DNA of 32,000 bases. Origin: Synechococcus sp. A15-24 (GTDB lineage: Bacteria > Cyanobacteriota > Cyanobacteriia > PCC-6307 > Cyanobiaceae). The position numbers and the translations under genes are program-made. Where the stretch lies: NCBI RefSeq assembly GCF_014280195.1, contig NZ_CP047960.1, forward strand, positions 930,001-962,000, given 5' to 3'. Below, piece after piece: positions 14,001-27,516 of the stretch. How positions within the stretch are numbered: position 1 is the stretch's first letter; every line of letters begins with the position of its first letter. The notes under the pieces are model-generated. The model searched no databases, was not told the origin of the DNA, and saw only the letters and a list, made by a program, of their open reading frames with translations.

Positions 14001-14576
14001 CCCAGTGCTCGACTCCTCGCACCCATCGGCCTGGGGGCGCTTGAGGAGCAACCGGACAAAGCCAAGGTCAGTGCCGTCACGATGATCACTGAGTTGCGTC
14101 AGGTCACCACCCGCAAGGGGGACCGAATGGCGATCCTTCAGCTGGAGGATCTCTCGGGCAGTTGCGAAGCCGTGGTGTTTCCCAAGAGTTATGCCCGACT
14201 GGCGGACCATCTGATGACAGAGGCGCGTCTTCTCGTCTGGGCAGGCGTCGATCGCCGGGATGATCGCGTGCAGTTGATCATTGATGACTGCCGGGTCATT
14301 GACGACCTCGCTGTTCTTCTCGTCGAACTCTCCTCTCAGCAGGCCAGCGACATCGCCATCCAACACAAGTTGAGGGAGTGCTTGACGCAATATCGACCTG
14401 AGCGTGAGGAACTTGGCGTCAAGGTGCCCGTTATTGCAGCGGTTCGCGAGGGTCAATCAGTTCGCTATGTCCGGCTGGGTTCTCAGTTCTGCGTCAAGGA
14501 CGCGGAAGCTGCGCTGCAAGCCCTGAAGACGCAGGCCTTCACGGCCCGTCATTCAGAGCCCATGGTGCTGGGTTGA
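11058..14576 (+). CDS. dnaE: DNA polymerase III alpha subunit DnaE (contiguous, no intein)
   Basis: 1172 aa. PHP domain [17 protein letters not shown]. Polymerase core [24 protein letters not shown] and [11 protein letters not shown]-terminal OB-fold region is present. Confidence 0.97.
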
Positions 14577-14993
14577 TCAGTCGGACTTGTTCTGTTGTTT
14601 CTGAGCTTTGATCGACTGGCGCATCCGTTGAACGTTGGGTTTGAGATTCTCCATACCAAGCAGCGAACCGGGCTGTTGATCCCAGCTGGAGCTCAGCACC
14701 CCAAAACTCAGCCCCACCAGCCCGAGTAGAAAAAAGAAGCCGGAACCCGCCAAAGTCAGCCCGGGCGCGATGTCAGCGATACCCTTGGTGATGAGCAGAT
14801 AGCTGCCAACAAAAACGCCCATGCCGGCAACAGTCGGCAAACCTGTGAACACCGCCACACGACGAGCCATCCTGTCAGCGACATAACGGGGAATGGCCTC
14901 CTGGCGGATGGCTGGGTCGTTTCCGTCGCCTTTGGAACCACCCTTTTTGGAACCCTTGGGCTCAAAGGGCAGTGACTGACGGTCCTCAGGCAT
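14577..14993 (-). CDS. PAM68-family photosystem II assembly factor (DUF3464, Sll0933-like)
   Basis: LPFEPKGSKKG...IPRYVADRMARRVAVFTGLPT...LVGLSFGVLSSSWD aligns by eye with Synechocystis Sll0933 (LPFEPK..., IPEVVSRRM, GLSYGIFSASWD). Two TM helices. Confidence 0.85.
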   Translation of the reverse strand: MPEDRQSLPFEPKGSKKGGSKGDGNDPAIRQEAIPRYVADRMARRVAVFTGLPTVAGMGVFVGSYLLITKGIADIAPGLTLAGSGFFFLLGLVGLSFGVLSSSWDQQPGSLLGMENLKPNVQRMRQSIKAQKQQNKSD

Positions 14994-15004
14994 GGTGCGC
15001 TCGA

Positions 15005-15274
15005 TCAGCCGCGGATGCCCAGTTTGGCGATGATCTCGGTGTACCGCTGCTCGCTCTTGTTACGCATGTAGCTCAGCAGGCGCTTACGCCGACCAATCAT
15101 CTTCAGCAACCCCTGGCGCGAGGAGAAGTCGTGGATGTTGTTCTGGAGGTGGCTGCTGAGACGGTTGATCCGCTCGCTCAGCATGGCGACCTGGACCTCC
15201 GCGGAACCGGTGTCGGTGCCGTGGGTTTGGTGAGTGTTGATCAGCTGTTGCTTCTCGGTGGTATCAAGCGACAT
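15005..15274 (-). CDS. rpsO: 30S ribosomal protein S15
   Basis: 89 aa. [22 protein letters not shown]...[23 protein letters not shown] is canonical S15. Confidence 0.97.
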
Positions 15275-15318
15275 GCGCGGGGTGCAGCCCTGTCAGTGCA
15301 AACAACCACCTTACCCGG

Positions 15319-15936
15319 TCATGGTCCCAAAAAAGACATAAGCTTGATGCAAGCCCTCAGCCAGGCGTCATCGTCATCACCGTCCTGGGGACCTCCGATG
15401 CTGCTCAGTCGTTGCAGCGCGCTTTGGATCTCATGGGTTTCGTAGCCGAGGGTCTCCAGTGTTGCGATGAGGTCAGGAGGAACAGAATCCACCTGATTGA
15501 GATCTGGATCGATGGAACCATCGCTGTCCACCAGCCGAGTGCGTAGCTCCAGAGCAAGACGTTCAGCGGTTCGTTTGCCCACTCCTTTTGCTCTGCAGAG
15601 GGTGTTGATGTCGGAGTGGACCAGAGCCCTTACAAGTTCGTTTGGCTTACAGGCATCGAGTAAGGACAATCCGGCCTGAGGCCCCACACCGCTCACTTGG
15701 ATCAGCTCCCTGAACAGGTCCCGTTCAGCCACTTGCAGAAATCCGAACAGTTGAAGGCTGTCAGCACTGACCACTTGATGAATCCAGAATTCATGGACTT
15801 TTCCAGTTGACAGAGTTTGCCAGTCCCGTTGAACGAGATAAACCTCGTAGCCGATGCCGCCACAACCAATCAGAACAAGGTTGCGTGACCTGCGTTGGTC
15901 CCGATGCTGGATCTCACCCTTCAGCCAGCCAATCAT
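15319..15936 (-). CDS. ruvA: Holliday junction branch-migration complex subunit RuvA
   Basis: MIGWLKGEI...GIGYEV...LFGF...ERDLFRELIQVSGVGPQAGLSLL...LCRAKGVGKRTAERL: OB domain, two HhH motifs and a C-terminal domain III. Confidence 0.93.
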   Translation of the reverse strand: MIGWLKGEIQHRDQRRSRNLVLIGCGGIGYEVYLVQRDWQTLSTGKVHEFWIHQVVSADSLQLFGFLQVAERDLFRELIQVSGVGPQAGLSLLDACKPNELVRALVHSDINTLCRAKGVGKRTAERLALELRTRLVDSDGSIDPDLNQVDSVPPDLIATLETLGYETHEIQSALQRLSSIGGPQDGDDDDAWLRACIKLMSFLGP

Positions 15937-16017
15937 TGCTTGAACTCAATCAATGGATCGTAAACGTGTCGAATCGGGTTTTAATTGAGCTTCAGGTTAA
16001 CAAGTGCTTGCTGAAGC

Positions 16018-16045
16018 TTGACGCTTGAAGGCCAAGACCTAAAAT
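16018..16045 (+). promoter_or_regulatory. Putative sigma70-type promoter for the island mrp operon
   Basis: TTGACG (16018-16023), a 16-nt spacer, then TAAAAT (16040-16045). A GGGAG Shine-Dalgarno-like element lies at 16046-16050, ahead of the ATG at 16063. The element is very close to the start codon, so the leader would be very short. Motif match only. Confidence 0.3.
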
Positions 16046-16062
16046 GGGAGAACGGCTCCACC

Positions 16063-16410
16063 ATGATGGAATTAACTCCTGAAAAAATAAGACTTATTCC
16101 GATGGTCGCCTTGATCATCATTGGCTGTTTCGGATTGTTGAATTCAAAATCGATTCTGCGCTCACTTTTTTCCCTCGACGTCATTGACACTGCGACAATC
16201 AGCATTTTTGTTTTGATCGCCGCCTCTGGCGGAGCGCAAACTCCGATTGTTGCAGAGAGTCGCTACAGCCAGTATTCGGATCCTTACCCACAAGCAATTA
16301 TTCTGACTGCCATTGTGATTGGTTTTGCAACGCAGGCTTTGCTCTGTGCGATTGCTTTGCGTTTGGGGCGTCAATCCCCAATGCTTCGCTATAGGAACCT
16401 AGAGAAGTGA
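16063..16410 (+). CDS. mrpC: Mrp/Mnh cation:proton antiporter subunit C (NuoK-like)
   Basis: Three TM helices. DPYPQAIILTAIVIGFATQALL matches the MnhC/NuoK motif (DPLPQALVLTAIVI.F). The likely start is ATG 16063 (MMELTPEK), preceded by GGGAG. Confidence 0.85.
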   Translation: MMELTPEKIRLIPMVALIIIGCFGLLNSKSILRSLFSLDVIDTATISIFVLIAASGGAQTPIVAESRYSQYSDPYPQAIILTAIVIGFATQALLCAIALRLGRQSPMLRYRNLEK

Positions 16411-17948
16411 TGGATTCTCAAATTCTTTTGCCGGCTTTGATTTTTTTGCCTGCAGCGCTGGGTTTTTTGGGATGTGTTCTTCCCAGAATTGTTTTCCCAG
16501 TAAGTGTGGCGATGCTTCTTGCGTATGCCTTCCTGTCTCAAAACCTGATCGGTTCCGGAGTCTCTTACGTCTTCACTTTGGTTGGTGAAGGAGGTATTCA
16601 ATTCTCTATTGATTTGTATACGTTTCCGCTCGTCTTCGGAAGCTCGATCACACTATTAATCTGCTTTGGTCTTTTTTATCGGCGATTCTCTCACTACTTT
16701 TATCAAGTCTGCTTGGTTCTTTTCACTGCATTGTTGATTGCCTTCAGCACAGTTGATCTCGTTAGCATGTTTATTGCTCTCGAATTGGTTGGGTTCGCTG
16801 CATTTTTATTGATTGCCGATCGTAGTGATAAAAAATCACTTTTCCATGCTTTTCAGTACTTGATAGGCGGAGGCCTTGCAATGCTGATCTACCTCATTGG
16901 TGTTGTGCAGGCTTTTACATACACAGGGTCTTTTTTGTTGACTGATCTTGTTCGAGCCCCTGAAACGGCTTTGTGTTTGATCGTTGCGGGGCTTCTCACA
17001 AAATCAGGAGTCTTTTTGTGTGGTTTGTGGGTCCCAAACATCTATTCACACGCTAACTGTCAATCCTCTGCTGTTCTGTCGGGTTGTGTGACCTGTGCCG
17101 GCATTGCTCCGATTGCACGCATGAGTCAGATTCTGATTCCGATCGGTGACTCAATGGTTGTTATCGGTGTCGTCAGTGCTGTTGTGGCGGCAATTTATGC
17201 GGTTTTTGAACGAGAGAGTGGTCGTGCTTTGGGGTGGAGCTCTGTTTCACAACTTGGAATTGCAATACTTTCACCCACATATGCTTGTGCATATGCCATG
17301 CAACATGGAATTTGCAAAGCACTTCTCTTCTCAACTCTTCACACCAAAGATCGCTCTAAACTGAGTGACGACAGCGTCAGCCACTTACACAATCAATTGG
17401 AGAATGTCCCATCTCTTCCAGTGGAGGAGTTCATCCGTGTGATTGTGTTTGTTGTCGCAAGTCTTTCGATCATGGGCTTTCCATATTTAAGCGGTTTCAT
17501 TACCAAGAATTGGGTTAAAACAGATTTACCCTATGAAGCTAAGATCATTTACACAACGGCTGCTTTATTAACATCAACCGTTTATGCTCGCTTGATTTTT
17601 GATAGAGTTTCTAATTTTATTGACCATCAACAGCCTCAGACTGTTTTGGCACTTAGACGAATTAGCCTTAACATAATTGATGTGCTGTCGACTCCCAGGC
17701 TATGGATCTTGTTGGTATCAATAATTTCTCTTATATACTTTTCTTTTGTTGATACTACTTTATATTCAACCCCATCAATTCGCTCAGCAATTGTTTCAGC
17801 CATTCTTGGTGGGATTCTGTTTATATCAGTGGTCGGAATTCAAGCCGACGAATTTGTAAAGCCTATCACTCGCACACTTGATCTCGTTGGTGCACCGTTC
17901 CTTGTTGCAGCCTTGCTACTTGCCAACCTTCTATACCTAAAAATCTGA
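16410..17948 (+). CDS. mrpD: Mrp/Mnh antiporter subunit D (NuoM/N-type proton-conducting antiporter-like subunit), divergent
   Basis: About 512 aa, polytopic. TM5-like Glu (FIALELVGFAAFLLI), TM7-like Lys (LLTKSGVFLCGLWVPNIY) and SQLG (WSSVSQLGIA) are typical of the NuoL/M/N/MrpA/D family. The usual APTPVSALLH stretch is degenerate (HANCQSSAVLSG). The ATG overlaps the mrpC stop (TGATG). Confidence 0.85.
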   Translation: MDSQILLPALIFLPAALGFLGCVLPRIVFPVSVAMLLAYAFLSQNLIGSGVSYVFTLVGEGGIQFSIDLYTFPLVFGSSITLLICFGLFYRRFSHYFYQVCLVLFTALLIAFSTVDLVSMFIALELVGFAAFLLIADRSDKKSLFHAFQYLIGGGLAMLIYLIGVVQAFTYTGSFLLTDLVRAPETALCLIVAGLLTKSGVFLCGLWVPNIYSHANCQSSAVLSGCVTCAGIAPIARMSQILIPIGDSMVVIGVVSAVVAAIYAVFERESGRALGWSSVSQLGIAILSPTYACAYAMQHGICKALLFSTLHTKDRSKLSDDSVSHLHNQLENVPSLPVEEFIRVIVFVVASLSIMGFPYLSGFITKNWVKTDLPYEAKIIYTTAALLTSTVYARLIFDRVSNFIDHQQPQTVLALRRISLNIIDVLSTPRLWILLVSIISLIYFSFVDTTLYSTPSIRSAIVSAILGGILFISVVGIQADEFVKPITRTLDLVGAPFLVAALLLANLLYLKI

Positions 17949-18385
17949 TGACCAATTTTATTCGACTTTCTATTCTGTTGCTTTTCCGACTTTTATGTTG
18001 GTGTCTAGTGACCTCAAGCTTTGAATCAAGTAATATCATTTTTGGCCTCGTTGTTTGCGTATTGATCCCATTTGGTGATTTTCGTAAACTTCAACTCAAG
18101 GCTTTAATTCCTGAGCTCTTGCTGACATTGCGTCTTCCATTTGATATGCTGAAAGAAAGTATTCAATTGATTCTGATTCAACATCCCATTGATCTATTTG
18201 TTCATGAGAAGGTTAGTTCTAGAACACGAAATGGTTCTAGATTTGCCGAGTTCTTGGATTTATTTCGAATCACTTTTACCCCAATGTCTCTTGTTTTACG
18301 CAGGATTGACATTGATCAGTGGAGAGTCCATCTAGTTGGTTCGTCACAATCGGATTATGATCAGAATGTGAGGGATACGTTATGA
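17948..18385 (+). CDS. mrpE: Mrp/Mnh antiporter subunit E (tentative)
   Basis: 145 aa with two N-terminal TM helices followed by a soluble domain, which is MnhE-like in size and topology. Its position between the D and F subunits fits, and the start overlaps the mrpD stop (TGATG). Sequence similarity is weak by eye. Confidence 0.6.
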   Translation: MTNFIRLSILLLFRLLCWCLVTSSFESSNIIFGLVVCVLIPFGDFRKLQLKALIPELLLTLRLPFDMLKESIQLILIQHPIDLFVHEKVSSRTRNGSRFAEFLDLFRITFTPMSLVLRRIDIDQWRVHLVGSSQSDYDQNVRDTL

Positions 18386-18660
18386 AAAATATTGATCTCG
18401 TACCCCTCGAGATTATTGAATACAGCATCATTTATATGATGCTGTTGATCAGTATGATTCCAGTTGTTGCTATTTCAAGGACGACTAATACTCCTGAAAG
18501 AATAGCTTATGCTTCAAGTTTTGGCAGTAAACTTGCTTTTATTGTTATTGCAGCAGGTATCTTCAGAGGTGATTGGATGATTGGTTGTATTGGTGCCTTC
18601 ATTCTTATTGTTGGTGATGCTGGCATGTTGATTCTTTCTCTTTTGGAGTTGAAAATCTAA
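18382..18660 (+). CDS. mrpF: Mrp/Mnh antiporter subunit F (tentative)
   Basis: 92 aa, three TM helices. TNTPERIAYASSFGSK resembles the MnhF GPT..DR..A.D motif. ATGA overlap with mrpE. Confidence 0.6.
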   Translation: MKNIDLVPLEIIEYSIIYMMLLISMIPVVAISRTTNTPERIAYASSFGSKLAFIVIAAGIFRGDWMIGCIGAFILIVGDAGMLILSLLELKI

Positions 18661-18927
18661 ATGTTAAATCTACTTTCATTCGCAATTCTTTTTATCGGCT
18701 TAATTTTTTGGCTATGGGGCACATTGCCTATTGTTAATCGAGAACATTCAATATTTTATAAGCTACATACTCTTACAGTTTCAGATAGTGTTGGTTCACT
18801 CCTAATTCTTCTGGCCTTGTTGATTCGTGCTCCGCAATATTGGCCTATTTTTTTAGTAACGGCAATCTCTTTATCACTTTGGAATACTGTTTTTAGTTAC
18901 ATTATTGGTAACATCTCTAATCGTTAA
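18661..18927 (+). CDS. mrpG: Mrp/Mnh antiporter subunit G
   Basis: 88 aa, three TM helices. FYKLHTLTVSDSVGSLLILLAL resembles the MnhG Y.RLHA..K..TLG motif. It starts immediately after the mrpF stop. Confidence 0.68.
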   Translation: MLNLLSFAILFIGLIFWLWGTLPIVNREHSIFYKLHTLTVSDSVGSLLILLALLIRAPQYWPIFLVTAISLSLWNTVFSYIIGNISNR

Positions 18928-19472
18928 TGATGATTGATTTTCTAAGTACAGCTCTGCTCCTTCCGTTCGAGCTTCTACTTCCCATACTTGGCATCCTTCT
19001 AATTCAATCACAATCTCCAATAAACAGTTTAATTTATAGATCATTTTTGGGTAGCATTGCTGCTTTGATTTATGCATTAATTGGTGCACCTGACGTTGCA
19101 CTCACCGAAGTTATGGTAGGGACTCTACTGTCCTCGCTGATTTATATTGTTACAATACGCTCTTGCTATACAATTGTAATTATCGTCGATACAAATAATC
19201 CTCCGCACAAAAATATAAAAGATTGCTTGAAGTTAATTTTTGACGAACTGCATTTAAAAATTGAATACCAGTCAGAGGTCTTCACAGATTCTTGCGCAGA
19301 TAATTTGGTTTTTCTTTCTTCAGCCAAGTCATCAGGTTCACCTCATGCATTGATTCACAATTCCACCTGTTTCTTTGAAGTCCAATCTTTACTCGATGAT
19401 GTCACTCTGACAGACTCTAGTAAATTTCTGGAAGATAAAATTACTCTTTGTTTATTACCTTCTCGACCATGA
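18927..19472 (+). CDS. DUF4040 membrane protein (MrpA C-terminal / MbhD-like subunit) with a non-membrane C-terminal extension of about 100 aa
   Basis: The N-terminal about 80 aa has three TM helices and the motif GAPDVALTEVMVGT, characteristic of the MnhB-N/DUF4040 segment of MrpA. Residues from about 85 to 181 are hydrophilic with no recognised domain. TAATG overlap with mrpG. Confidence 0.72.
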   Translation: MMIDFLSTALLLPFELLLPILGILLIQSQSPINSLIYRSFLGSIAALIYALIGAPDVALTEVMVGTLLSSLIYIVTIRSCYTIVIIVDTNNPPHKNIKDCLKLIFDELHLKIEYQSEVFTDSCADNLVFLSSAKSSGSPHALIHNSTCFFEVQSLLDDVTLTDSSKFLEDKITLCLLPSRP

Positions 19473-20182
19473 CTTCGAGCAAAACACCAAGACAATTTAC
19501 GCTTTCTTCAGAAGTAGCAAAGTCAACTGTCTATCTCGTAGCAATCACAGCCGTGATGCTGATGATCTTATTCACGCGAGACGATTCAGTTGCGCGAGAC
19601 ACAGAGCAGATTGTTGAATATCTTTCACAATATACGCAGATTCCAAACGCAGTGACTTCTGTCATTTTGGGTACAAGACTTTTTGATACGATTGGAGAAG
19701 TGACCGTATTTACAATTGCAGGTCTTGGAGTAAAAATCCTACTTCATGCAGAAGATTCAGAGGAAAAATTTGTTGGTATTAATGATCAAGTTATCCGAGT
19801 ACTGCTCGATTTCGCTGCATTACTAAGCTGCTTTCTAGCGATTGATCTTGCAGTCAAAGGTCATTTAACTCCTGGAGGTGGCTTTGCCTCAGGAGTTGCT
19901 GGTGCAACATCGATTACTATTTTGATGATTACTGGACGAATTCAAAAGGTTGAGGCGTTTTACTTTGGTAGTAATTCTCCTGCTCTTGAAAAAGTAGCCG
20001 TTATTGTTTTTATGCTGGTTGCACTCGCAACTTTTAGCTCTTTCTTACTTCCACAGTCTGTCTTCGCCACAGTTCCACCTACAATTTATATTCCACTATT
20101 GAATATCGTTGCAGCCCTCAAAGTTACTATCGGCTCATGGTCTATTCTTCGCCTATTTATTGTGAAGAGAGGTGTCCTTTAA
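19469..20182 (+). CDS. mrpB: Mrp/Mnh antiporter subunit B (MnhB domain)
   Basis: NAVTSVILGTRLFDTIGEVTVFTIAGLGVKILL matches the MnhB motif (N.VTAIL.DYRG.DTLGE..V). Further TM helices include GHLTPGGGFASGV. ATG 19469 overlaps the previous stop (ATGA). Confidence 0.8.
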   Translation: MTSSKTPRQFTLSSEVAKSTVYLVAITAVMLMILFTRDDSVARDTEQIVEYLSQYTQIPNAVTSVILGTRLFDTIGEVTVFTIAGLGVKILLHAEDSEEKFVGINDQVIRVLLDFAALLSCFLAIDLAVKGHLTPGGGFASGVAGATSITILMITGRIQKVEAFYFGSNSPALEKVAVIVFMLVALATFSSFLLPQSVFATVPPTIYIPLLNIVAALKVTIGSWSILRLFIVKRGVL

Positions 20183-20184
20183 CG

Positions 20185-20940
20185 ATGTCATATCGAGAGA
20201 CTGATGATTGGTACTTCGGTGACTATAGCGGTCGTCTTCCAGGCCGATCTTATTCACTGCTTTTGAATAGCGTCATTATTACCCTCTTTGCTCAAATTGC
20301 ATTGACGACTGAGCCAACATTTGACACTCCATCAGGTCAAATATTTTTACGCTTTACTCTCAATATTATTGAACTTTTCTTCATTAGTGACTATATCGGC
20401 AAACTTGCCAACTCATGGGCTCAAATGGATTACTCTCTAAAGGGCCTTGTTTATAGCGCACTTTCGAGATATGCCTTGGTCGATTTATGCGTAGTCTTGA
20501 TTCTGCTTACCGATCTGTTTTCTAATGACTCTTTTGTTGTCATTGGTGTTTATGTCTTCAAAGCGCTAATATCTATTTATTTTTCAAGTTTTAGGCTGGT
20601 TTTGATGAGAGTTAGGTTCATTATTTTTGATTCCCCTGCATACACCTTCTTCCCGCTTGTTTTATTGTCGATTGTGACATATGTGATGGCATTTTGCATT
20701 TATCTTCTTGAAAGATCTAATGACTCTGCGCATTTTGGATCCATTGTACGAGCTTTTTGGTTTTCTATTGTCACGATGACCACGATTGGGTATGGTGATG
20801 TTACACCTACAACATCTCTTGGGAAAGTCCTTGCGATCATGTTTGGTATTGTTGGCATTGTTTGCGTCGCGTTGTTAACAGCTAACATTCTTGAGGCTAA
20901 TGCTAAGTTTAACGAGATTGAGTCAAGTGGAAAAATCTAG
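20185..20940 (+). CDS. Six-TM potassium channel (Kv-like ion-transport protein) with a TIGYGD selectivity filter
   Basis: Pore helix and filter FWFSIVTMTTIGYGDVTP. Five upstream hydrophobic segments are present. The S4-like segment FRLVLMRVRFIIF carries only three Arg. No RCK or CNBD domain. The ATG at 20185 lies 2 nt after the mrpB stop. Confidence 0.88.
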   Translation: MSYRETDDWYFGDYSGRLPGRSYSLLLNSVIITLFAQIALTTEPTFDTPSGQIFLRFTLNIIELFFISDYIGKLANSWAQMDYSLKGLVYSALSRYALVDLCVVLILLTDLFSNDSFVVIGVYVFKALISIYFSSFRLVLMRVRFIIFDSPAYTFFPLVLLSIVTYVMAFCIYLLERSNDSAHFGSIVRAFWFSIVTMTTIGYGDVTPTTSLGKVLAIMFGIVGIVCVALLTANILEANAKFNEIESSGKI

Positions 20941-21700
20941 TCCTTCCATTGCGCTTAATAATCAATATGGTGTTTCTATGCATTCACTCAATCATATATT
21001 AGATGTTGGAACTCCGTTTGTAATTTTTGAGGCCTATGTGTCTTCCTATCATAAATTTATCGACTTTATAAAATTTGGTTGGGGAAGTGCTTTGATAGAT
21101 CCTGAGTTTGAGTCGAAGAAGGAAATCTGTGAACGATTTGGGATTAAGCCTCTACTTGGTGGCACTTTTTTTGAGTATATGATTCATCATCATGGCTTTG
21201 CGGGCTTTGTGAAAAAAATTGAACAATATGGACTGCAATATGTTGAACTTAGTCGAGGCACAATTGATATTGATGACTCGTTGTATGCGTCCTATATTAA
21301 GCAACTTTCTTCAGACTATTACGTTATGAGTGAAGTGGGGAGGAAATCCTCAGACCCCTCCCAGGCCCTTGCTCCATCACAATGGCTTGCCCATTGTGAG
21401 CTCTCATCAGATGCAGGGGCTTCCTTAGTGGTACTTGAATCACGTGAGTCGGGTCGCTCGGGATATGTTTCTACTGGTGGCGATGTCAACGCGGTCATGC
21501 TTGATTCCATAAGCAATTCACTTCCCATCAACTCTCTACTGTTTGAGGCACCAATCAAGTCTGTTCAGACCTTTTTGATTAAACGTTATGGTGCATCGGT
21601 CAACCTGGGTAATCTTTCACTGGTTGATCTCTTAGCAGTTCAGTCACTACGTCTTGGGTTGCGTTCAGACACGCTGCTTGAATCCAAAGCAATATTTTAA
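20900..21700 (+). CDS. comA: (2R)-phospho-3-sulfolactate synthase ComA-family protein
   Basis: Block-by-block match to the remembered Methanocaldococcus ComA: IDFIKFGWGSA (DFVKFGWGTS), LLGGTFFEY (PGGTLFEY), VELSRGTIDI (VEISDGS), SEVGRK (EVGKK), DAGASLVVLESRESG (DAGADYVIIEGRESG), LFEAPIKSVQ...YGASVNLGN (IFEAPQKSQQ...FGSSVNLAN) and LRLGLRSDT (LRRGLRGDT). The start is uncertain (ATG 20900, GTG 20930 or ATG 20978). The first two overlap the end of the channel gene. Confidence 0.85.
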   Translation: MLSLTRLSQVEKSSPSIALNNQYGVSMHSLNHILDVGTPFVIFEAYVSSYHKFIDFIKFGWGSALIDPEFESKKEICERFGIKPLLGGTFFEYMIHHHGFAGFVKKIEQYGLQYVELSRGTIDIDDSLYASYIKQLSSDYYVMSEVGRKSSDPSQALAPSQWLAHCELSSDAGASLVVLESRESGRSGYVSTGGDVNAVMLDSISNSLPINSLLFEAPIKSVQTFLIKRYGASVNLGNLSLVDLLAVQSLRLGLRSDTLLESKAIF

Positions 21701-21729
21701 TATTTTTCTTTTTGACGTCAGCTAGCAGA

Positions 21730-21764
21730 TTGTCAATAGGCTTATTCTCGCCTATCATTATAAT
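21730..21764 (+). promoter_or_regulatory. Putative internal promoter of the island, upstream of the binding-protein/carrier pair
   Basis: This is the only sizeable intergenic gap in the island (21701-21785). It contains TTGTCA (21730-21735), a 17-nt spacer, TATCAT (21753-21758), and an adjacent TATAAT (21759-21764). The perfect palindrome TGACGTCA sits at 21713-21720. Motif match only. Confidence 0.3.
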
Positions 21765-21785
21765 GACCATTTCCTAGCTCTATTG

Positions 21786-22667
21786 ATGTCGCCTAAATGG
21801 CCAAAAGCATTCGTAAGGCATCTAATTGCTTTCACCTTGACCGTAGCATTATTGCAGGCATTGCCGGCTTTGGCTGCTGAAAATAGTTTCATAAATTCGA
21901 TTCAACAACGTGGATATTTAAAAGTCGGATTGCCACCATACAATACGCCTCCCGCATACTATATCGATAAAAAAACAGAAAAACTGCAAGGATATGATGT
22001 AGAGCTGGCCCGCGAACTTGCTGACAAGCTTGGCGTTGATCTTCAATTTGATAGAGAATCAAAAAGCTTTAATTCACTTGTAGAGCGTGTTGGTGCTGAC
22101 GATTTTGATCTAGCGATCGGCAAGCTGGGTCTCACTTATAATCGATTATTTGACGCATTTCCTGTCCAGTATTTGAGCTTCCGTCATGCTCTCCTCGCAG
22201 ATCGAAAGTTTATTTCTAGTCTAGGAGTCGATCCGGAAGATGATGGTTTTGGCGATGCGTTGAAAACTTCAAATATCCGCATTGGTTCTATTGAAAACTC
22301 AACTTGGGAAACTGAGGCGAAAGTTAACTTCCCAAACTGTAAATTTGTTGGCTACAAAAACTGGGAGGATGCTCAGAAGGCTTTGTTGGCTGTTGACCCC
22401 AAAACCAAAAAATCAGCTATCGATGCAATTTATCGTGATGCCACTGAGATCAAGCCAATTGTTTATAAAGATCCTGATTTATCGCTTAAATACGTCCCTG
22501 TTCTTTTTGACGATATTATTGATCGAAAATCTATTTATCTTTCCGAGAAGGGCTACATAGGATTTTCGGACTTTCTTGATGTCTTTATTCGTCGAGAGTG
22601 GGGTGAGGTCAAGTCTGACGAACGCATCCTCAATGAATATCAAGCTTATTACCAGCCAGTATCTTGA
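21786..22667 (+). CDS. Periplasmic solute-binding protein, family 3 (polar amino acid / organic acid type) with a signal peptide
   Basis: The signal peptide is MSPKWPKAFVRHLIAFTLTVALLQALPALA-AE. The SBP_bac_3 pattern is YLKVGLPPYNTPPAYYIDKKTEKLQGYDVELARELADKLGV...FDLAIGKLGLTYNRLFD, including the T..R carboxylate-binding position. Confidence 0.85.
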   Translation: MSPKWPKAFVRHLIAFTLTVALLQALPALAAENSFINSIQQRGYLKVGLPPYNTPPAYYIDKKTEKLQGYDVELARELADKLGVDLQFDRESKSFNSLVERVGADDFDLAIGKLGLTYNRLFDAFPVQYLSFRHALLADRKFISSLGVDPEDDGFGDALKTSNIRIGSIENSTWETEAKVNFPNCKFVGYKNWEDAQKALLAVDPKTKKSAIDAIYRDATEIKPIVYKDPDLSLKYVPVLFDDIIDRKSIYLSEKGYIGFSDFLDVFIRREWGEVKSDERILNEYQAYYQPVS

Positions 22668-22672
22668 TCATT

Positions 22673-24061
22673 ATGCAGACATCTCAGGATTCCATGTCAT
22701 TTCTTGATCGGGTGTTCTCGATTCTCCCGGCACTTCGAAAACCTCGCAATTTCTTCCTTTATATACTTCCGTTTTCAATTGTTTTCGGAAGAGTTATACC
22801 AACACAGCTTGCTTCTGGTTTAAATGACGTTGGATTGGCAATGGTTCAACTCATTGCTTTCCCGGCGATTCCGCTTGTGTTGTCTGCCGTCATGATTTCA
22901 ATTGCTAATATTTTTAATGAAGACAATCGGTCGGCTCAGCGCCGGTTGCGCTTCTCCAGTCGTTTTGTGATTTCCTTGACGCTGACGATTCTCCTCGCAT
23001 CTTTGCTGGCACTTCTTCTTTCTATCTATCAGGCGCCTGGAGTTTTGTCACCGGATGGAAAACTATCAATTGGTCGTTTCATGCTTGATACGACTGATAT
23101 TCGCGTAGGGGGAGATGTCGCAGCTTCATCAATCTCTAGCGACTTCTGGATCGCAAAAATTGTTCCCAGCAATATTCTGGCTGATGCATCTGCTGGTCAG
23201 ACACTGAGAGTAATAAGTGGATCGGTTTTGGCTGGTTTGGCTATGTCCAGGTTGAATCCTGGTCTAACCCAACCACTGCTTTCGCTTCTTCGCAGTGTTA
23301 ACACTACGTCAGTGCAGGTTTTAAGCATTGTGCTAAATCTTGCTCCTCTTGTTCTTATCTGTCTGATCTCTGGCGCTGTTTCTACTATCAACGCTGAGAT
23401 TGTTGTTGCGCTTTTAAACTTTACAATCTGTGTTTTCCTGACGGCAATTGCCTCTCTTGGTATCTCAAGGCTTGTTTTTCGTCGTTTCACATCTACGCGT
23501 GAGCGAGCGACGACTGATGCAAATCCTGTGGACTCTGTCTTTCTTCTCAGTCTTTCCACTGGCAGCAGTATGACGGCATATCCACTGATGTTTGAGACCC
23601 TCAAGGGGATGGGGCGTGATGAATCCGAAGTTGAAGCATCAGCTTCTCTCAGCCTGTTAATCGCTCGTTTGGGTAATGTTACTTACAACGTCATCGCGAT
23701 TGTCTTTGCTCTCAATCTTTACGATGTGGGTCTTACACCTGTGCGTTTTTTGGAGGTCATTTTCCTTGGCGCTTTTACAGGGATTTCGGCTGCTGGGTTG
23801 ACTGGTGTTGCCACTGTTCCGACGATTGCTGTCGCGCTCTCTTATTTCCAAGTACCGATCCCGCCTGTTTTAGTTCTTCTCTTAGCGATTGATCCGATTC
23901 TTACGTTGCCGCGTGCTGCTACAACCGGTGTTTTGGCGATCGCGATTTCAGTGATTTCCTCAGCCAAGTCCAGCAACTCAGAGCTGTCTGATGTCTCATC
24001 CAGTTCCTCCCTTGGTCTGCTCAGCCAGCAGGGTGATGTTGCCTCACTAGAAGGTGGTTGA
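22673..24061 (+). CDS. Divergent dicarboxylate/amino acid:cation symporter (DAACS, GltP/DctA/EAAT-like) family carrier
   Basis: About 460 aa, polytopic. By-eye matches to DAACS landmarks: FPAIPLVLSAVMISI (PLVF.S...GI, TM3), HP1-like STGSSMTAYPLMFE (SSSA.TLP), HP2-like GISAAGLTGVATVP (S.G.AGIPG.G) and TM8-like LAIDPILTLPRAATTG (.D...D..RT..NV.GD). The NMDG motif is not conserved (ARLGNV). The start is ATG 22673 or 22694. The TTG at 22664 overlaps the binding-protein stop. Confidence 0.72.
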   Translation: MQTSQDSMSFLDRVFSILPALRKPRNFFLYILPFSIVFGRVIPTQLASGLNDVGLAMVQLIAFPAIPLVLSAVMISIANIFNEDNRSAQRRLRFSSRFVISLTLTILLASLLALLLSIYQAPGVLSPDGKLSIGRFMLDTTDIRVGGDVAASSISSDFWIAKIVPSNILADASAGQTLRVISGSVLAGLAMSRLNPGLTQPLLSLLRSVNTTSVQVLSIVLNLAPLVLICLISGAVSTINAEIVVALLNFTICVFLTAIASLGISRLVFRRFTSTRERATTDANPVDSVFLLSLSTGSSMTAYPLMFETLKGMGRDESEVEASASLSLLIARLGNVTYNVIAIVFALNLYDVGLTPVRFLEVIFLGAFTGISAAGLTGVATVPTIAVALSYFQVPIPPVLVLLLAIDPILTLPRAATTGVLAIAISVISSAKSSNSELSDVSSSSSLGLLSQQGDVASLEGG

Positions 24062-24513
24062 TGCAACCGATTCAGTCCCTATCTCGGATGATACGCCAGC
24101 TCTTGACTGTTGTGTCAGGGCTCTTGATCGTCGTAACCCTGTCGTCCTGCACCCTTCGCAATGAGCCGCCCCGCGCCATTGTCATTGAGGCCTTGCAGTC
24201 ACAGATCCAGACGACCCAGGTCTCCATTGCACAAAGTCTTGACTTGCAACCTGTGGCCTCTGCTCCTGCCGTCAGCCGGGTTCGCGTCGACCATCAAGAG
24301 GTCCTCAAGGTGGAGGGCGAGCGTTTCGTGCATTTAGAAGGCAGTTTTGACTGGCAGTTACCTCGGGACAGCGTCCGTGTGGACAGTGCCTTTGATCTCT
24401 ACCTCCAGCGCGGGTCGCACGGAGAAGGGTGGAGTCTTGCCAGGCCTGCAGTAAGCAATGGTGGCGAAGCCCAGCGTTGGCTGCTCTACCCCCTCGGCTT
24501 GCCCACGAGCTGA
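24061..24513 (+). CDS. Lipoprotein, unknown function (core-genome composition)
   Basis: The signal peptide carries the lipobox LLIVVTLSS-C. GC here is back to flank level. The ATG at 24061 shares its A with the TGA of the island carrier gene. Confidence 0.7.
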   Translation: MQPIQSLSRMIRQLLTVVSGLLIVVTLSSCTLRNEPPRAIVIEALQSQIQTTQVSIAQSLDLQPVASAPAVSRVRVDHQEVLKVEGERFVHLEGSFDWQLPRDSVRVDSAFDLYLQRGSHGEGWSLARPAVSNGGEAQRWLLYPLGLPTS

Positions 24514-24518
24514 TCTGA

Positions 24519-25406
24519 TCAGGCCTGACGGCTGGAGAGGCTGATAAAGGATGCACCCAGCACAAGCGCTGCACCACCACATGTGAATGCCGTAATTGAT
24601 TCGTTGAACCAGATCCACCCCCAGCTAGCAGCGAACAACACCTGGACGTAATTCAGCGACGTCGCCCTCGCCGCTGGCAGACAGCTCAGCCCCTTGGTCA
24701 CCCAGATCTGGCCGAGTTGAGTCAGCACACCGACTCCGAGCAACCAGATCCAATCCACCGCTGAAGGCCAGACCCCGATGTGCAGAACCATCGGCAGCGT
24801 GAGGGGAATCGAGACCACAGGGAAATAGAGAATGATCACCAAGGGGTGTTCCTTGGCCGATAAGCGTCGGACGCATACATATGCCAGAGCTGTAAATAAA
24901 GCTCCGCCCAGGGCTGTCAGCCCTGGGCGTAACGCCAGCCCGTTCTGGCCTGCGCCCAGCCATTCCGGTTGGATCACAAACACCACCCCGAGCAAGCCCA
25001 GCAGCACGGCCAAGCCAATGCGACGGCGCAGCCGTTCCCCCAGCAATAGCCAGGCCGCCGCTGCAGTGAATGTTGGGTAGGTGTACTGCAGGACCGTGGC
25101 TGATGCCAGCGGTAATGCAGTGATCGCCTCGAAGAAGCACAGCAGGGCAACGCTTCCACAGATGCCGCGTAGCAGCAGCAGGCGTCGGTTGTTCCCCAGG
25201 GGTTTGATCCCTCCAACCGCCATGGCTGTTCCCGTCAGGGCAATGCTCACAACGGATCGAACCAGCACGATCTCGCTGACGGGAATTCGTCCTCCCAGTT
25301 GTTTGACGCACACCGTCATCAGGCTGAAGGCAAGAGAGCTCAGAACCAGGGCCCTCGCTCCCTGCATCTCCTGGCGCTGCCACCAGGTCGACGTCTGTTC
25401 ATCCAT
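24519..25406 (-). CDS. DMT-superfamily (EamA-like) transporter
   Basis: Ten predicted TM helices arranged as two EamA-like repeats (ALVLSSLAFSLMTVCVKQL ...; ...LTQLGQIWVTKGL). The chosen start is MDEQTS (ATG at 25406), because the 25472 start would overlap dnaG. Confidence 0.85.
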   Translation of the reverse strand: MDEQTSTWWQRQEMQGARALVLSSLAFSLMTVCVKQLGGRIPVSEIVLVRSVVSIALTGTAMAVGGIKPLGNNRRLLLLRGICGSVALLCFFEAITALPLASATVLQYTYPTFTAAAAWLLLGERLRRRIGLAVLLGLLGVVFVIQPEWLGAGQNGLALRPGLTALGGALFTALAYVCVRRLSAKEHPLVIILYFPVVSIPLTLPMVLHIGVWPSAVDWIWLLGVGVLTQLGQIWVTKGLSCLPAARATSLNYVQVLFAASWGWIWFNESITAFTCGGAALVLGASFISLSSRQA

Positions 25407-25464
25407 GGTTGCGCTGGTGCTCCTGATGGGTGGACGCCGACCTGCGACTTCGCAGAATGGGTCC

Positions 25465-27516
25465 ATGGTCAATGCCCGCCTTCATCCCCGCACCATCGAC
25501 GCCGTCAAGGAGCGGGCGGACATCGTCGATGTGGTGGGCGACCACGTCGTTCTGAAAAAGAAAGGACGGGAGTTTGTCGGCATCTGTCCGTTTCACGACG
25601 ACAGCAAGCCGTCGATGACGGTGTCTCCCGCCAAGCAGTTCTACTACTGCTTCTCCTGTGGTGCGGGCGGAAACTCCATCAAGTTCCTGATGGAGTTTCA
25701 GCGGCAGAGTTTCAGCGATGTAGTGCTGGATCTGGCCCGCCGTTATCAGGTGCCGGTCGAGACCGTTGATGGTCCTCAGCAGGAGCGGTTGAAGCAGCAA
25801 CTCTCCCGGCGGGAGAAGCTTCAGCGGGCCCTGGCCTTGGCTGCCGGTTGGTTTCGCAGCCAGTTGCGCAGCCCGACGGGTGAGCAGGCCCTGGCGTACC
25901 TCACGGAAGTTCGTGGCCTGACACTCGCCACCCAGGAGACATTCGGTCTCGGTTACGCCCCGGACCAATGGGACGGCCTTTTAAAGCATCTGCAGCAGGT
26001 GGAAGGCCTTTCGGCTGAGCTGTTGGAGGCAGCTGGACTGGTGGTCCCCCGCAAGGGTGGCCATGGCTTCTACGACCGTTTTCGCCGTCGGGTGATGGTT
26101 CCGATTCACGACCGTCAGGGACGGGTGATTGGCTTCGGTGGCCGGAGCTTGGATGGCAGCGAGCCCAAATACCTGAACTCTCCAGAGACGGAGGTGTTCG
26201 AGAAAGGCAAGCATCTGTTCGGCCTCGACAAGGCCACCAACACCATCCGCAAGCAGGACCGTGCCGTGGTGGTGGAGGGTTACTTCGATGTCATCGCCCT
26301 GCACGCGGCAGGGATCACCAATGCGGTGGCGTCCCTGGGCACCGCCCTCAGCAGCCAGCAGATCACCCAGCTCTGTCGCGTCACCGACGGCAAGCGGATC
26401 GTTCTCAACTTTGACGCGGACGGCGCTGGGGTTCGTGCGGCTAACCGCGCCATCGGTGAAGTGGAGCAGCTCGCCTTGCAGGGGCAACTGGAGCTGCGGG
26501 TGCTGCATCTGCCTTCCGGCAAAGATCCAGATGAGTTCCTCAAGGACCATGGCGCCGGGGATTACCGGGCTCTGCTCGATCAGGCGCCCCTCTGGCTGGA
26601 CTGGCAGATCGAACAGGCCCTCGCTGATCGAGACCTTGCCAAGGCGGATCAGTTCCAGCAGGCGGTCTCGGCCTTGGTGGCTCTGCTCGGAAAGTTGCCT
26701 CAGTCGGCGGTGCGCACCCATTACCTGCAACGGGTCGCTGAACGGCTCAGCGGCGGTCAAGGTCGATTGGCACTGCAGCTGGAGGACGACCTGCGCCAGC
26801 AGGTGAAGGGCCAGCGTTGGCATGGTCGATCCAGCCGGCATGACCAGCCGGGCGACACCAGTCAGCGGGAGCGCTGTGAGGCTGATCTGCTGCGCCTTTA
26901 TCTGCATGCCCCCCGCCACAGGGGCACGATCCGCCAGGAGTTGCGCCAGCGGGAACTGGAGGACTTTGCGATCCCCCATCACCGTCTGCTCTGGGCCTCT
27001 CTGACGGAACTTGAGGAGACCAACCTCGGCGTGGGCCGCCTGGAATCGATCAGCCGTGGTGAAGATGATGGTGACGGCCTAGATGGGCTGGACCTGCCCC
27101 GTCTGCTGACGGACCAGCTGCTGCTGGAGAACAGCCCTCTGTTGTCACGGCTGACGCCATTGCTCGAACCGGGTGAACTGGAGCGTGTCGCCCTGGCCGA
27201 ACCGCTCGAGCAGTTGCGTGGGCTCGCGGCATTGCTGGAGCGTCAGAAGAGCTTCAAGCGCTGCCGCCACCTGCTGGAAGCCTGGGGTGGGCAGCGTCTG
27301 CAGACCTTGGAAGCCTGCATTTCCGTGTTGGTGCAAGACAACCAGGCGGATCAGCAGGGTGTGGACATGGAAGGCCGCATCGAGCAACTGTTCGAGGAGC
27401 TCAACCGCGATGCGTTGCACTACCAGGAGCTGTATTACAGCGAGAGGAAGCACATTCAGCATCTCGATCAGCAACGCCGCGGCGGCTTCCAGACCGTTGA
27501 TGTCCTGTCCGCCTGA
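25465..27516 (+). CDS. dnaG: DNA primase DnaG
   Basis: CHC2 zinc finger [40 protein letters not shown] region [16 protein letters not shown]...LNFDADGAG. The true start is ATG 25465 ([24 protein letters not shown]). The 25081 start in the track is an out-of-gene extension antisense to the DMT gene. Confidence 0.95.

Follow-up and report, generated by a model that had tools for sequence, protein, structure and literature searches.

An AT-rich ion-transport cassette beside ruvA in Synechococcus sp. A15-24 is probably a flexible genomic island exchanged by homologous recombination

Synechococcus sp. A15-24 is a cultured strain of clade III (Dore et al. 2020, PMC7522525). In a 32,000-nucleotide stretch of its genome (the window; positions below are those of this stretch), an AT-rich block of about 8 kb lies between ruvA and the genes that lead to dnaG, and carries 11 co-oriented genes on the + strand, most of them translationally coupled and 10 of them with Pfam support. 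This block is probably a flexible genomic island, that is, an operon-like ion-transport and solute-uptake cassette that is swapped by homologous recombination within the picocyanobacterial accessory gene pool. According to this explanation, the cassette would be gained, lost and replaced through recombination with endpoints in the conserved genes of the dnaE-PAM68-rpsO-ruvA-hyp151-eamA-dnaG neighborhood, where hyp151 denotes the gene of a putative lipoprotein. In A15-24, an exchanged tract from about 15300 to 24101 would have carried in a foreign ruvA allele together with the island. Three ancient cassette lineages, one for each of three adjacent intergenic slots, would have been shuffled among host clades in the same way. 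An earlier note, made from the sequence alone, had proposed a horizontally exchanged, strain-variable island without mobility genes, and in this it is borne out by the comparisons described here.

Neighborhoods for comparison were collected from species-representative genomes through RuvA and from metagenomes through the conserved neighbor RpsO. Contexts of MrpD homologs were taken from each identity tier, and all window proteins were mapped onto these loci, which are designated by L-numbers. The rpsO scan yielded 61 informative environmental contigs: the cassette is present in 17, the site is empty in 30, and other cargo is found in 14. Two loci without the island, L038 and L039, belong to close relatives of A15-24: their DnaE is 99%, DnaG 99–100%, PAM68 98%, and Hyp151 and EamA 96–97% identical to those of the window (97% for Hyp151 of L038), with an overall core-protein identity of 98.7–99.0%. 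In both, ruvA adjoins hyp151. DNA homology to these empty sites, as determined by blastn, ends at 15938 and resumes at 24101, and an unrelated spacer of ~300 bp replaces 8.16 kb of the window. The same 11 genes are thus not common to all close relatives at this position. Nor is the island specific to the strain, as had been considered in the earlier note, since the same locus is occupied in many Synechococcus lineages by 10 or 11 of these genes, with protein identities of 55–100%. In nine Prochlorococcus loci, the order of ruvA, eamA and dnaG is retained, and none of the island genes is present.

The alignment of the window with the DNA of L038 and L039 shows where the exchanged tract begins and ends. 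Identity is 93–99% over dnaE, pam68 and rpsO, drops to ~78% exactly over ruvA, and reaches 95–99% from 24101 on. Synonymous divergence (dS) of ruvA is 0.74 versus 0.13–0.18 in the backbone genes on either side. The drop in identity and the high dS over ruvA together imply that the tract exchanged spans ~15300–24101 and includes both ruvA and the island. The island limits drawn in the earlier note, between the ruvA start and position 24061, therefore describe a real AT-rich block, but the tract that varies relative to empty-site relatives is larger and takes in ruvA and the first ~40 nucleotides of the next gene.

Comparison with the other carriers revealed that the cassette occupies three adjacent slots in constant orientation. 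Slot a, between ruvA and hyp151, is used in the window, L001, L022/23, L029–32, L035–37, L040 and L044; slot b, between hyp151 and eamA with ruvA and hyp151 adjacent, in L027/28, L062, L064 and L065; and slot c, between rpsO and ruvA, in L048, L049, L054, L070 and L113. Two further versions are located elsewhere in the genome (L024–26 and L033). Across the seven Mrp proteins, alleles within a slot are 70–87% (a), 84% (b) and 69–77% (c) identical, while identity between slots is ~63% for a versus b and ~56% for a versus c. Judged from these protein identities, the alleles group by slot rather than by host.

The strongest contrasts between island and backbone were found within two clades of near-identical hosts. 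In the clade of the window (core identity 95–99%), identity to the window allele ranges from 72 to 87%, with 87% overall for L036, 78% for L035 and L040, and 74% for L037. L036 is itself a mosaic: it is 97–99% identical to the window up to ~18016 (ruvA, mrpC and mrpD) and 93–99% again from 20116, and the island genes flanking the strongly diverged internal tract (Table 1) have dS values of only 0.06–0.09. In the second clade (core identity 98–99%), five long contigs are empty (L043 and its relatives), L044 carries a cassette in slot a, and L048, L049 and L054 carry one in slot c; the MrpCD proteins of the slot-a and slot-c alleles are 59.7% identical. Hyp151 of L044 is 49% identical to the copy of its own clade and 60–64% identical to those of other slot-a carriers, and its eamA is native (97%). 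The import in L044 covers ruvA or part of it, the island, and hyp151. The foreign ruvA of the window, the L036 mosaic and the foreign hyp151 of L044 answer the question of how the island arrived, which the earlier note had called unclear, in favor of homologous recombination anchored in the flanking core genes.

RuvA stands out beyond these two clades. Between marine Synechococcus lineages whose DnaE proteins are 85–92% identical, RuvA is 40–60% identical, which is an extraordinary divergence, and it forms two deep allele groups that do not track the backbone, an unexpected pattern for a Holliday-junction protein. This divergence may reflect the place of ruvA inside a variable region.

An alternative history, in which the cluster is ancestral at the locus and vertically inherited, attributes the patchy distribution to repeated deletion and the divergence of alleles to fast evolution. 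That deeply separated lineages (protein identity as low as 55%) carry the cassette with unchanged orientation and neighborhood is readily explained in this way, as is the lack of mobility genes, and the cassette family is probably ancient. Moreover, identity of the island and identity of the core are positively correlated (Spearman 0.43), so that part of the pattern does stem from vertical descent. Nevertheless, backbones that are 95–99% identical carry alleles that are 60–87% identical and reside in different slots, and dS between alleles is saturated in near-identical backbones whose own dS is ~0.15. The mosaic structure of L036, the foreign hyp151 of L044 and the grouping of alleles by slot instead of host are equally at odds with it. 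Vertical descent and loss alone are unable to yield these patterns and are contradicted as the sole explanation, which leaves this history unlikely.

Features of mobile elements were searched for at the locus. The earlier note had reported no integrase, transposase, phage gene, adjacent tRNA or flanking repeat, and the Pfam, tRNA and repeat searches agree with it. None of the 11 products or their immediate neighbors matched integrase, transposase, phage or recombinase families of Pfam. No tRNA gene lies beside the island, the only one in the window being a tRNA-Pro gene (783–856) 15 kb away, and the repeat search detected short chance repeats but no att-like direct or inverted repeats bracketing the junctions. 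Viral contigs scanned with MrpD contained no relative. Since all the defining features tested are absent, the island is not an integrative mobile element (prophage, integrative and conjugative element, tycheposon or transposon). Homologous recombination in the flanks dispenses with mobility genes.

The composition of the island deviates strongly from that of the surrounding DNA. GC content is 0.36–0.49 across 16001–24000 and 0.52–0.67 elsewhere in the window (500-nucleotide windows). GC content at third codon positions (GC3) is 0.25–0.50 in the 11 island genes versus 0.57–0.86 in the flanking dnaE, PAM68, rpsO, ruvA, hyp151, eamA and dnaG, and strand-symmetric tetranucleotide distances to the flanks are 0.62–0.83 within the island versus 0.15–0.32 outside it. 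All three computed measures confirm the sharp drop first seen by hand counting. The same composition is found wherever the cassette is found: in all hosts examined, its GC content is 0.37–0.43 and its GC3 0.30–0.44, while the backbones have a GC content of 0.47–0.63.

These values bear on a second alternative, a recent import from a low-GC donor (a low-GC Prochlorococcus, another cyanobacterium or a heterotroph) by a phage or integrative element that has since decayed. The strong compositional deviation is what such an import predicts, and the genes are arranged as is typical of Mrp clusters of cyanobacterial group 3 (PMC5703873). A populous tier of cassettes with 58% identity at another locus, with a left-flank GC content of ~0.50, could in addition belong to low-light Prochlorococcus. 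However, all sampled carriers are GC-richer than the cassette, and cassette GC content is alike in all of them, so that low GC is no pointer to a low-GC donor. The window allele is 72–87% identical to other slot-a alleles and only ~57% identical to the off-locus tier, which rules out that tier as its donor. The locus has no tRNA, att site or integrase remnant, the viral contigs hold no relatives, the nine Prochlorococcus contigs lack the island at the ruvA locus, and Prochlorococcus MED4 was reported to be without mrp (PMC6337551). An import of this kind is thus improbable. The low-GC cyanobacterial donor suggested in the earlier note is accordingly retained in one respect only: a cyanobacterial origin of the Mrp part is consistent with the group 3 gene order (PMC5703873) and with the context of the homologs, all of which, where checked, are part of this cassette, on contigs that are Synechococcus-like or from unidentified picocyanobacteria, while the low GC of the donor is not indicated. 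The 58% tier is very microdiverse in ocean metagenomes. As for the notion that the contrast is a by-product of coding for hydrophobic membrane proteins and silent on the history of the region, it is next to untenable and the amino-acid effect is ruled out by GC3: although 9 of the 11 products are integral membrane proteins and GC at first and second codon positions is somewhat below that of the flanks, the deviation in GC3 is largely independent of amino acids, the genes of the two soluble products (ComA and the solute-binding protein; GC3 0.35–0.36) are as AT-rich as those of the membrane proteins, and eamA, a membrane-protein gene in the flank, has a GC3 of 0.70.

Exchange by homologous recombination, the explanation favored here, leaves the AT-richness itself to be accounted for. 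The equal GC content in all hosts, together with saturated synonymous sites and protein differences of up to 45%, indicates that it is old and maintained, and it thus appears to be an intrinsic, long-kept property of the cassette family and not a fingerprint of the last donor. In slots a, b and c, the genes at the ends are modestly GC-richer (mrpC 0.43, SDF symporter gene 0.42) than the inner ones (0.32–0.36), an effect that is weaker in off-locus copies. This gradient fits partial homogenization from the flanks, and it also fits rarely recombining accessory DNA that escapes a GC-raising force acting on the core genome. That cassettes have kept a GC3 of 0.30–0.44 through saturated synonymous divergence in hosts with a GC3 of 0.6–0.75 may reflect an escape from such a force, for example biased gene conversion. 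If so, an AT-rich island is not necessarily of foreign origin. It is common to take low GC in a GC-rich genome as the mark of a low-GC donor, and that inference from composition to donor fails here.

The first seven genes of the island are predicted to encode a minimal Mrp-type cation/proton antiporter. MrpC and MrpB score above NCBIfam equivalog cut-offs, and subunits B, C and G are recognized by family models. The closest solved relative of MrpD is MbhH (6CFW_H, E=5e-13), followed by Bacillus MrpD. The cluster encodes one PF00361 protein and no second antiporter-like subunit, and a single mrpD is present in all alleles examined. A long NuoL-type MrpA is not encoded; its equivalent is a 180-amino-acid MbhD-like protein, whose AlphaFold model (mean predicted local distance difference test score, 79.7) superposes three helices on 6CFW_D with a root-mean-square deviation of 1.1 Å and a template-modeling score of 0.82. 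The C-terminal ~100 amino acids of this protein (19170–19472) form a conserved soluble alpha/beta extension with invariant residues G136-S137-P138 and a nearly invariant H139. The domain, whose fold is predicted with confidence, had no significant Foldseek match among solved structures; a regulatory or docking function peculiar to the complex of picocyanobacteria is conceivable. With one antiporter-like subunit instead of two, the predicted complex would not be a canonical Mrp of the CPA3 family (groups 1 and 2). It would consist of the antiporter-like MrpD (MbhH-like) together with subunits C, E, F, G, the MbhD-like protein and B, and a conserved promoter upstream of mrpC would drive its expression.

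Two known systems resemble this arrangement. The group 3 Mrp of Aphanothece halophytica, encoded by mrpCD1D2EFGAB, has demonstrated Na+/H+ antiporter activity (reviewed in PMC5703873). The island shares with cyanobacterial group 3 clusters the order C-D-E-F-G-A-B, already named in the earlier note, as well as the short MbhD-type 'A' subunit and the lack of a long NuoL-type MrpA. However, mrpD occurs twice in group 3 (D1 and D2) and once here, the MbhD-like subunit has its additional soluble domain of ~100 amino acids, and the genes are joined to those of a K+ channel, a binding protein and an SDF symporter in one operon-like unit. The ion module of the Pyrococcus furiosus membrane-bound hydrogenase (MBH; MbhA-H, PDB 6CFW) is similar in having a single antiporter-like subunit, a free-standing MbhD of the same fold and a one-to-one subunit inventory. 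Sequence identity to it is low, and MBH has a redox (hydrogenase) partner, whereas neither a hydrogenase nor a sulfur reductase module is encoded in the island or in the adjacent genes of the window.

The antiporter shares the cassette with a K+ channel, with a periplasmic binding protein and with a divergent symporter of the SDF family. The selectivity filter TTIGYGD is common to the channel of the window and those of all alleles, although the channel gene is absent from the cassettes of L033 and L113. ComA aligns over its full length with 1U83 (E=8e-46, residues 36–262) and 1QWG. Its score against the archaeal equivalog TIGR03849 is 172, below the cut-off of 280, which marks it as a bacterial-type member such as Bacillus subtilis YitD. 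The comA gene is an optional, accessory part of the cassette. Carriers are the window, L022/23, L035–37, L040, L044, L049 and L070; L001, L029–32, L062, L113, L033 and L024–26 lack it. At the place of comA, L030 (13138–13698), L031 and L032 have a gap of ~560 bp between the channel and binding-protein genes, which could hold a decayed comA remnant, and the gap in L029 is ~137 bp. The nearest solved relatives of the binding protein are amino-acid-binding proteins (E=6e-8). In each of the five allele lineages, also where channel and ComA are absent, its gene directly precedes that of the SDF carrier. The SDF protein reaches ~60 bits with the NCBIfam GltP and DctA models, far under their cut-offs. 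In a pairwise HMMER alignment that is uncertain owing to low identity, it has ARLGN opposite NMDGT of the aspartate transporter, and the other alleles shown have ARLGN or ARMGN, SRMGN, SQIGN or TNMGN at that place. Reading frames are intact in all alleles, and the ratio of nonsynonymous to synonymous divergence (dN/dS) is 0.05–0.25 in all unsaturated comparisons. The island genes are thus functional and under purifying selection.

Taken together, the domains, their conservation and the expression of a possibly orthologous cluster suggest that the cassette is most likely a cation/proton homeostasis module coupled to ion-driven solute uptake. Its role would be Na+/K+/pH homeostasis linked to the uptake, driven by an ion gradient, of an amino acid or a small organic anion, and in some alleles, including that of the window, phosphosulfolactate synthase would add a sulfonate-forming step (from sulfite and phosphoenolpyruvate). 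For Synechococcus sp. WH7803, mrpCDF were reported to be co-expressed as a unit, with expression that rises at night and falls by day (PMC7393227). An mrp cluster is present in WH7803 and absent from WH8102, LTW-R and MED4 (PMC7771541, PMC6337551); the WH7803 cluster is likened to the cassette by its published description. The literature search retrieved no functional study of a picocyanobacterial mrp version.

More speculatively, the invariant core of the cassette (the Mrp with a single antiporter subunit, the family-3 binding protein and the SDF carrier without NMDGT) may represent a new type of uptake system, a suggestion to which we attach only slight weight. All five allele lineages retain this core as a unit, also those without channel and ComA. 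Substrate captured by the binding protein would be handed to a secondary transporter of the SDF family, and the ion gradient that powers uptake would be restored by a dedicated mini-Mrp. Secondary transport that depends on a binding protein is established for the TRAP and TTT families and is not known from others.

Several observations weigh against an exchanged ion-transport and uptake cassette, in addition to the correlation between island and core identity. Neither the ruvA allele of the window nor that of the L038 lineage is close to any other sampled, and the island may equally have been gained in the window lineage or lost in the L038 lineage. Most comparison sequences are metagenome contigs and possibly chimeric; the key arrangements were each found in at least two independent contigs. 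A profile of 11 alleles of the mrpE-like product matched the MrpE-like chain 6U8Y_A only with E=0.41, while position and size of the gene are constant in all alleles. The protein at the mrpF position had no Pfam or NCBIfam match and, as a profile of 12 proteins, none among PDB sequences (E<=10), and it is strongly conserved across alleles with an invariant GDAGM motif. The SDF carrier lacks the NMDGT motif typical of characterized glutamate, aspartate and dicarboxylate carriers. Finally, the proposed physiological role is read from domains and neighborhood, and one study noted no correspondence between the presence of mrp and the salinity tolerance of Synechococcus strains (PMC7771541).

The cassette behaves like the flexible islands already described from 81 genomes of marine Synechococcus and Prochlorococcus (Dore et al. 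2020, PMC7522525) and is nothing categorically new. It shares with them deviant composition, presence or absence among close relatives, a hotspot with varying cargo, occurrence in close as well as distant strains, and transporter genes of a niche type. It differs in having no adjacent tRNA, in occupying three neighboring slots with slot-specific alleles, and in dragging along the core gene ruvA. The text and available supplements of PMC7522525 do not mention the gene cluster, and searches of the literature on mrp, mrpC and mrpD, phosphosulfolactate synthase, A15-24 and Synechococcus islands found no description of the island. What makes it informative are the three slots, the deep slot-specific allele lineages, the hitch-hiking ruvA and the constant AT-richness that does not reflect a donor. 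The locus offers a well-resolved case of how accessory blocks move in abundant ocean cyanobacteria without mobile-element machinery: whole cassettes and adjacent 'core' genes such as ruvA are swapped, and deeply diverged versions coexist in near-identical cells. The module of Mrp, K+ channel, and binding protein with SDF carrier is also an experimental lead, with possible relevance for the cycling of sodium and the uptake of organic solutes, also at night. The strains concerned are culturable, and expression data already exist for WH7803.

Table 1. Features of the island and its borders in the window
Feature	Position	Strand	Description
ruvA	15319..15936	-	Pfam RuvA_N, HHH_5, RuvA_C; core gene, allele part of the exchanged tract
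ruvA-mrpC spacer	15937..16065	+	Left junction (empty-site homology ends at 15938, blastn) and promoter-like element
Promoter-like element	16018-16045	+	TTGACG-N16-TAAAAT, 10/12 consensus positions
mrpC (NuoK/MbhG-like)	16066..16410	+	PF00420, 63.6 bits; NCBIfam NF005620, 138 bits (cut-off 91)
mrpD (NuoL/M/N-type antiporter-like)	16410..17948	+	PF00361, 90 bits; 512 amino acids; 100% identical to QNJ28808.1 of A15-24
mrpE-like (tentative)	17948..18385	+	PF01899 MNHE, E=5e-4, under gathering score
Internal recombination tract versus L036	18050..20100		mrpE to mrpB, ~70% identity, dS 1.9
mrpF-position membrane protein, 92 amino acids	18382..18660	+	Assigned by position and size alone
mrpG	18661..18927	+	PF03334, 52.9 bits
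MbhD-like subunit (MrpA C-terminal equivalent) with extension of ~100 amino acids	18930..19472	+	PF13244, 54.7 bits
mrpB (weak MbhE match and MnhB domain)	19469..20182	+	PF04039, 49.9 bits; NCBIfam NF009218, 267 bits (cut-off 184)
Kv-like K+ channel with six transmembrane segments	20185..20940	+	PF07885, 65 bits; PF00520, 33 bits
comA-family (2R)-phospho-3-sulfolactate synthase	20927..21700	+	PF02679, 196 bits (cut-off 25)
Only sizeable internal spacer	21701..21785	+	Promoter-like site 21730-21758, 10/12 consensus positions
Family-3 periplasmic solute-binding protein, signal peptide	21786..22667	+	PF00497, 42 bits
Divergent SDF (DAACS-family) symporter	22673..24061	+	PF00375, 123.5 bits (cut-off 27.9), residues 47-431
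hyp151, putative lipoprotein, resident neighbor	24061..24513	+	Right junction ~24101; lipobox-like LSSC after hydrophobic N-terminus

The gene layout given in the earlier note, with 11 genes on the + strand and stop/start couplings of the types TGATG, ATGA and TAATG, was reproduced. Its housekeeping right flank holds at a distance: the immediate neighbors are the genes of the 150-amino-acid putative lipoprotein and of an EamA transporter, and dnaG lies beyond them. The likely start of mrpC is the ATG at 16066, which gives a product of 114 amino acids, and homologs are likewise called at 114 amino acids. The start codon of comA is uncertain (20900, 20927 or 20978). Counts from consensus scans for promoters and terminators equal chance. 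The site upstream of mrpC was retained because of its conservation across alleles: TTGACG-N17-TAnnnT is kept there in other type-a alleles whose spacers otherwise diverge. As the total of promoter-like sites in the region equals chance expectation, the site in the internal spacer is only a lead. An Rfam scan of 14500–25600 (E<=0.1) found nothing.

Hyp151 matches no family of Pfam or NCBIfam. Where the island occupies slot a, the stop codon of the SDF gene and the ATG of hyp151 overlap (TGATG), and translation of hyp151 is thus probably coupled to that of the island operon. Slot-b lineages have hyp151 on the other side of the island.

The other cargo of the 14 contigs mentioned above consists of inserts of 1.1–8.5 kb with unrelated genes upstream of ruvA (for example L076:6811-9297, L100:1-8509, L072, L073, L081, L089 and L107). 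Their products include DUF2834, DUF6790 and DUF3750 proteins, a LuxR-type response regulator, a weak ferritin-like match and a weak amidase match, and in most of these contigs the GC content of the cargo is below that of the host flank. Among the off-locus cassettes, those of L024 (9663-17073), L025 and L026 are located between a Na+/Ca2+ exchanger gene and a DJ-1 gene, and that of L033 (9655-16284), which is without channel and ComA, between ilvD and pfk-pgl-gnd-glgC. In L022 (10462-15724; single-cell contig QCTF01000010), the SDF match covers the first ~197 residues only and the product also matches the phycobilisome linker family PF00427. The right flank of L022 is a HEAT_PBS/Nif11 region with a GC content of 0.43 instead of hyp151-eamA-dnaG, which represents either a real rearrangement joining the island to a phycobilisome region or a chimeric assembly. 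In the window, the mechanically called dnaG reading frame from 25081 is too long and runs into eamA on the other strand, and homologs of DnaG align from ~25480.

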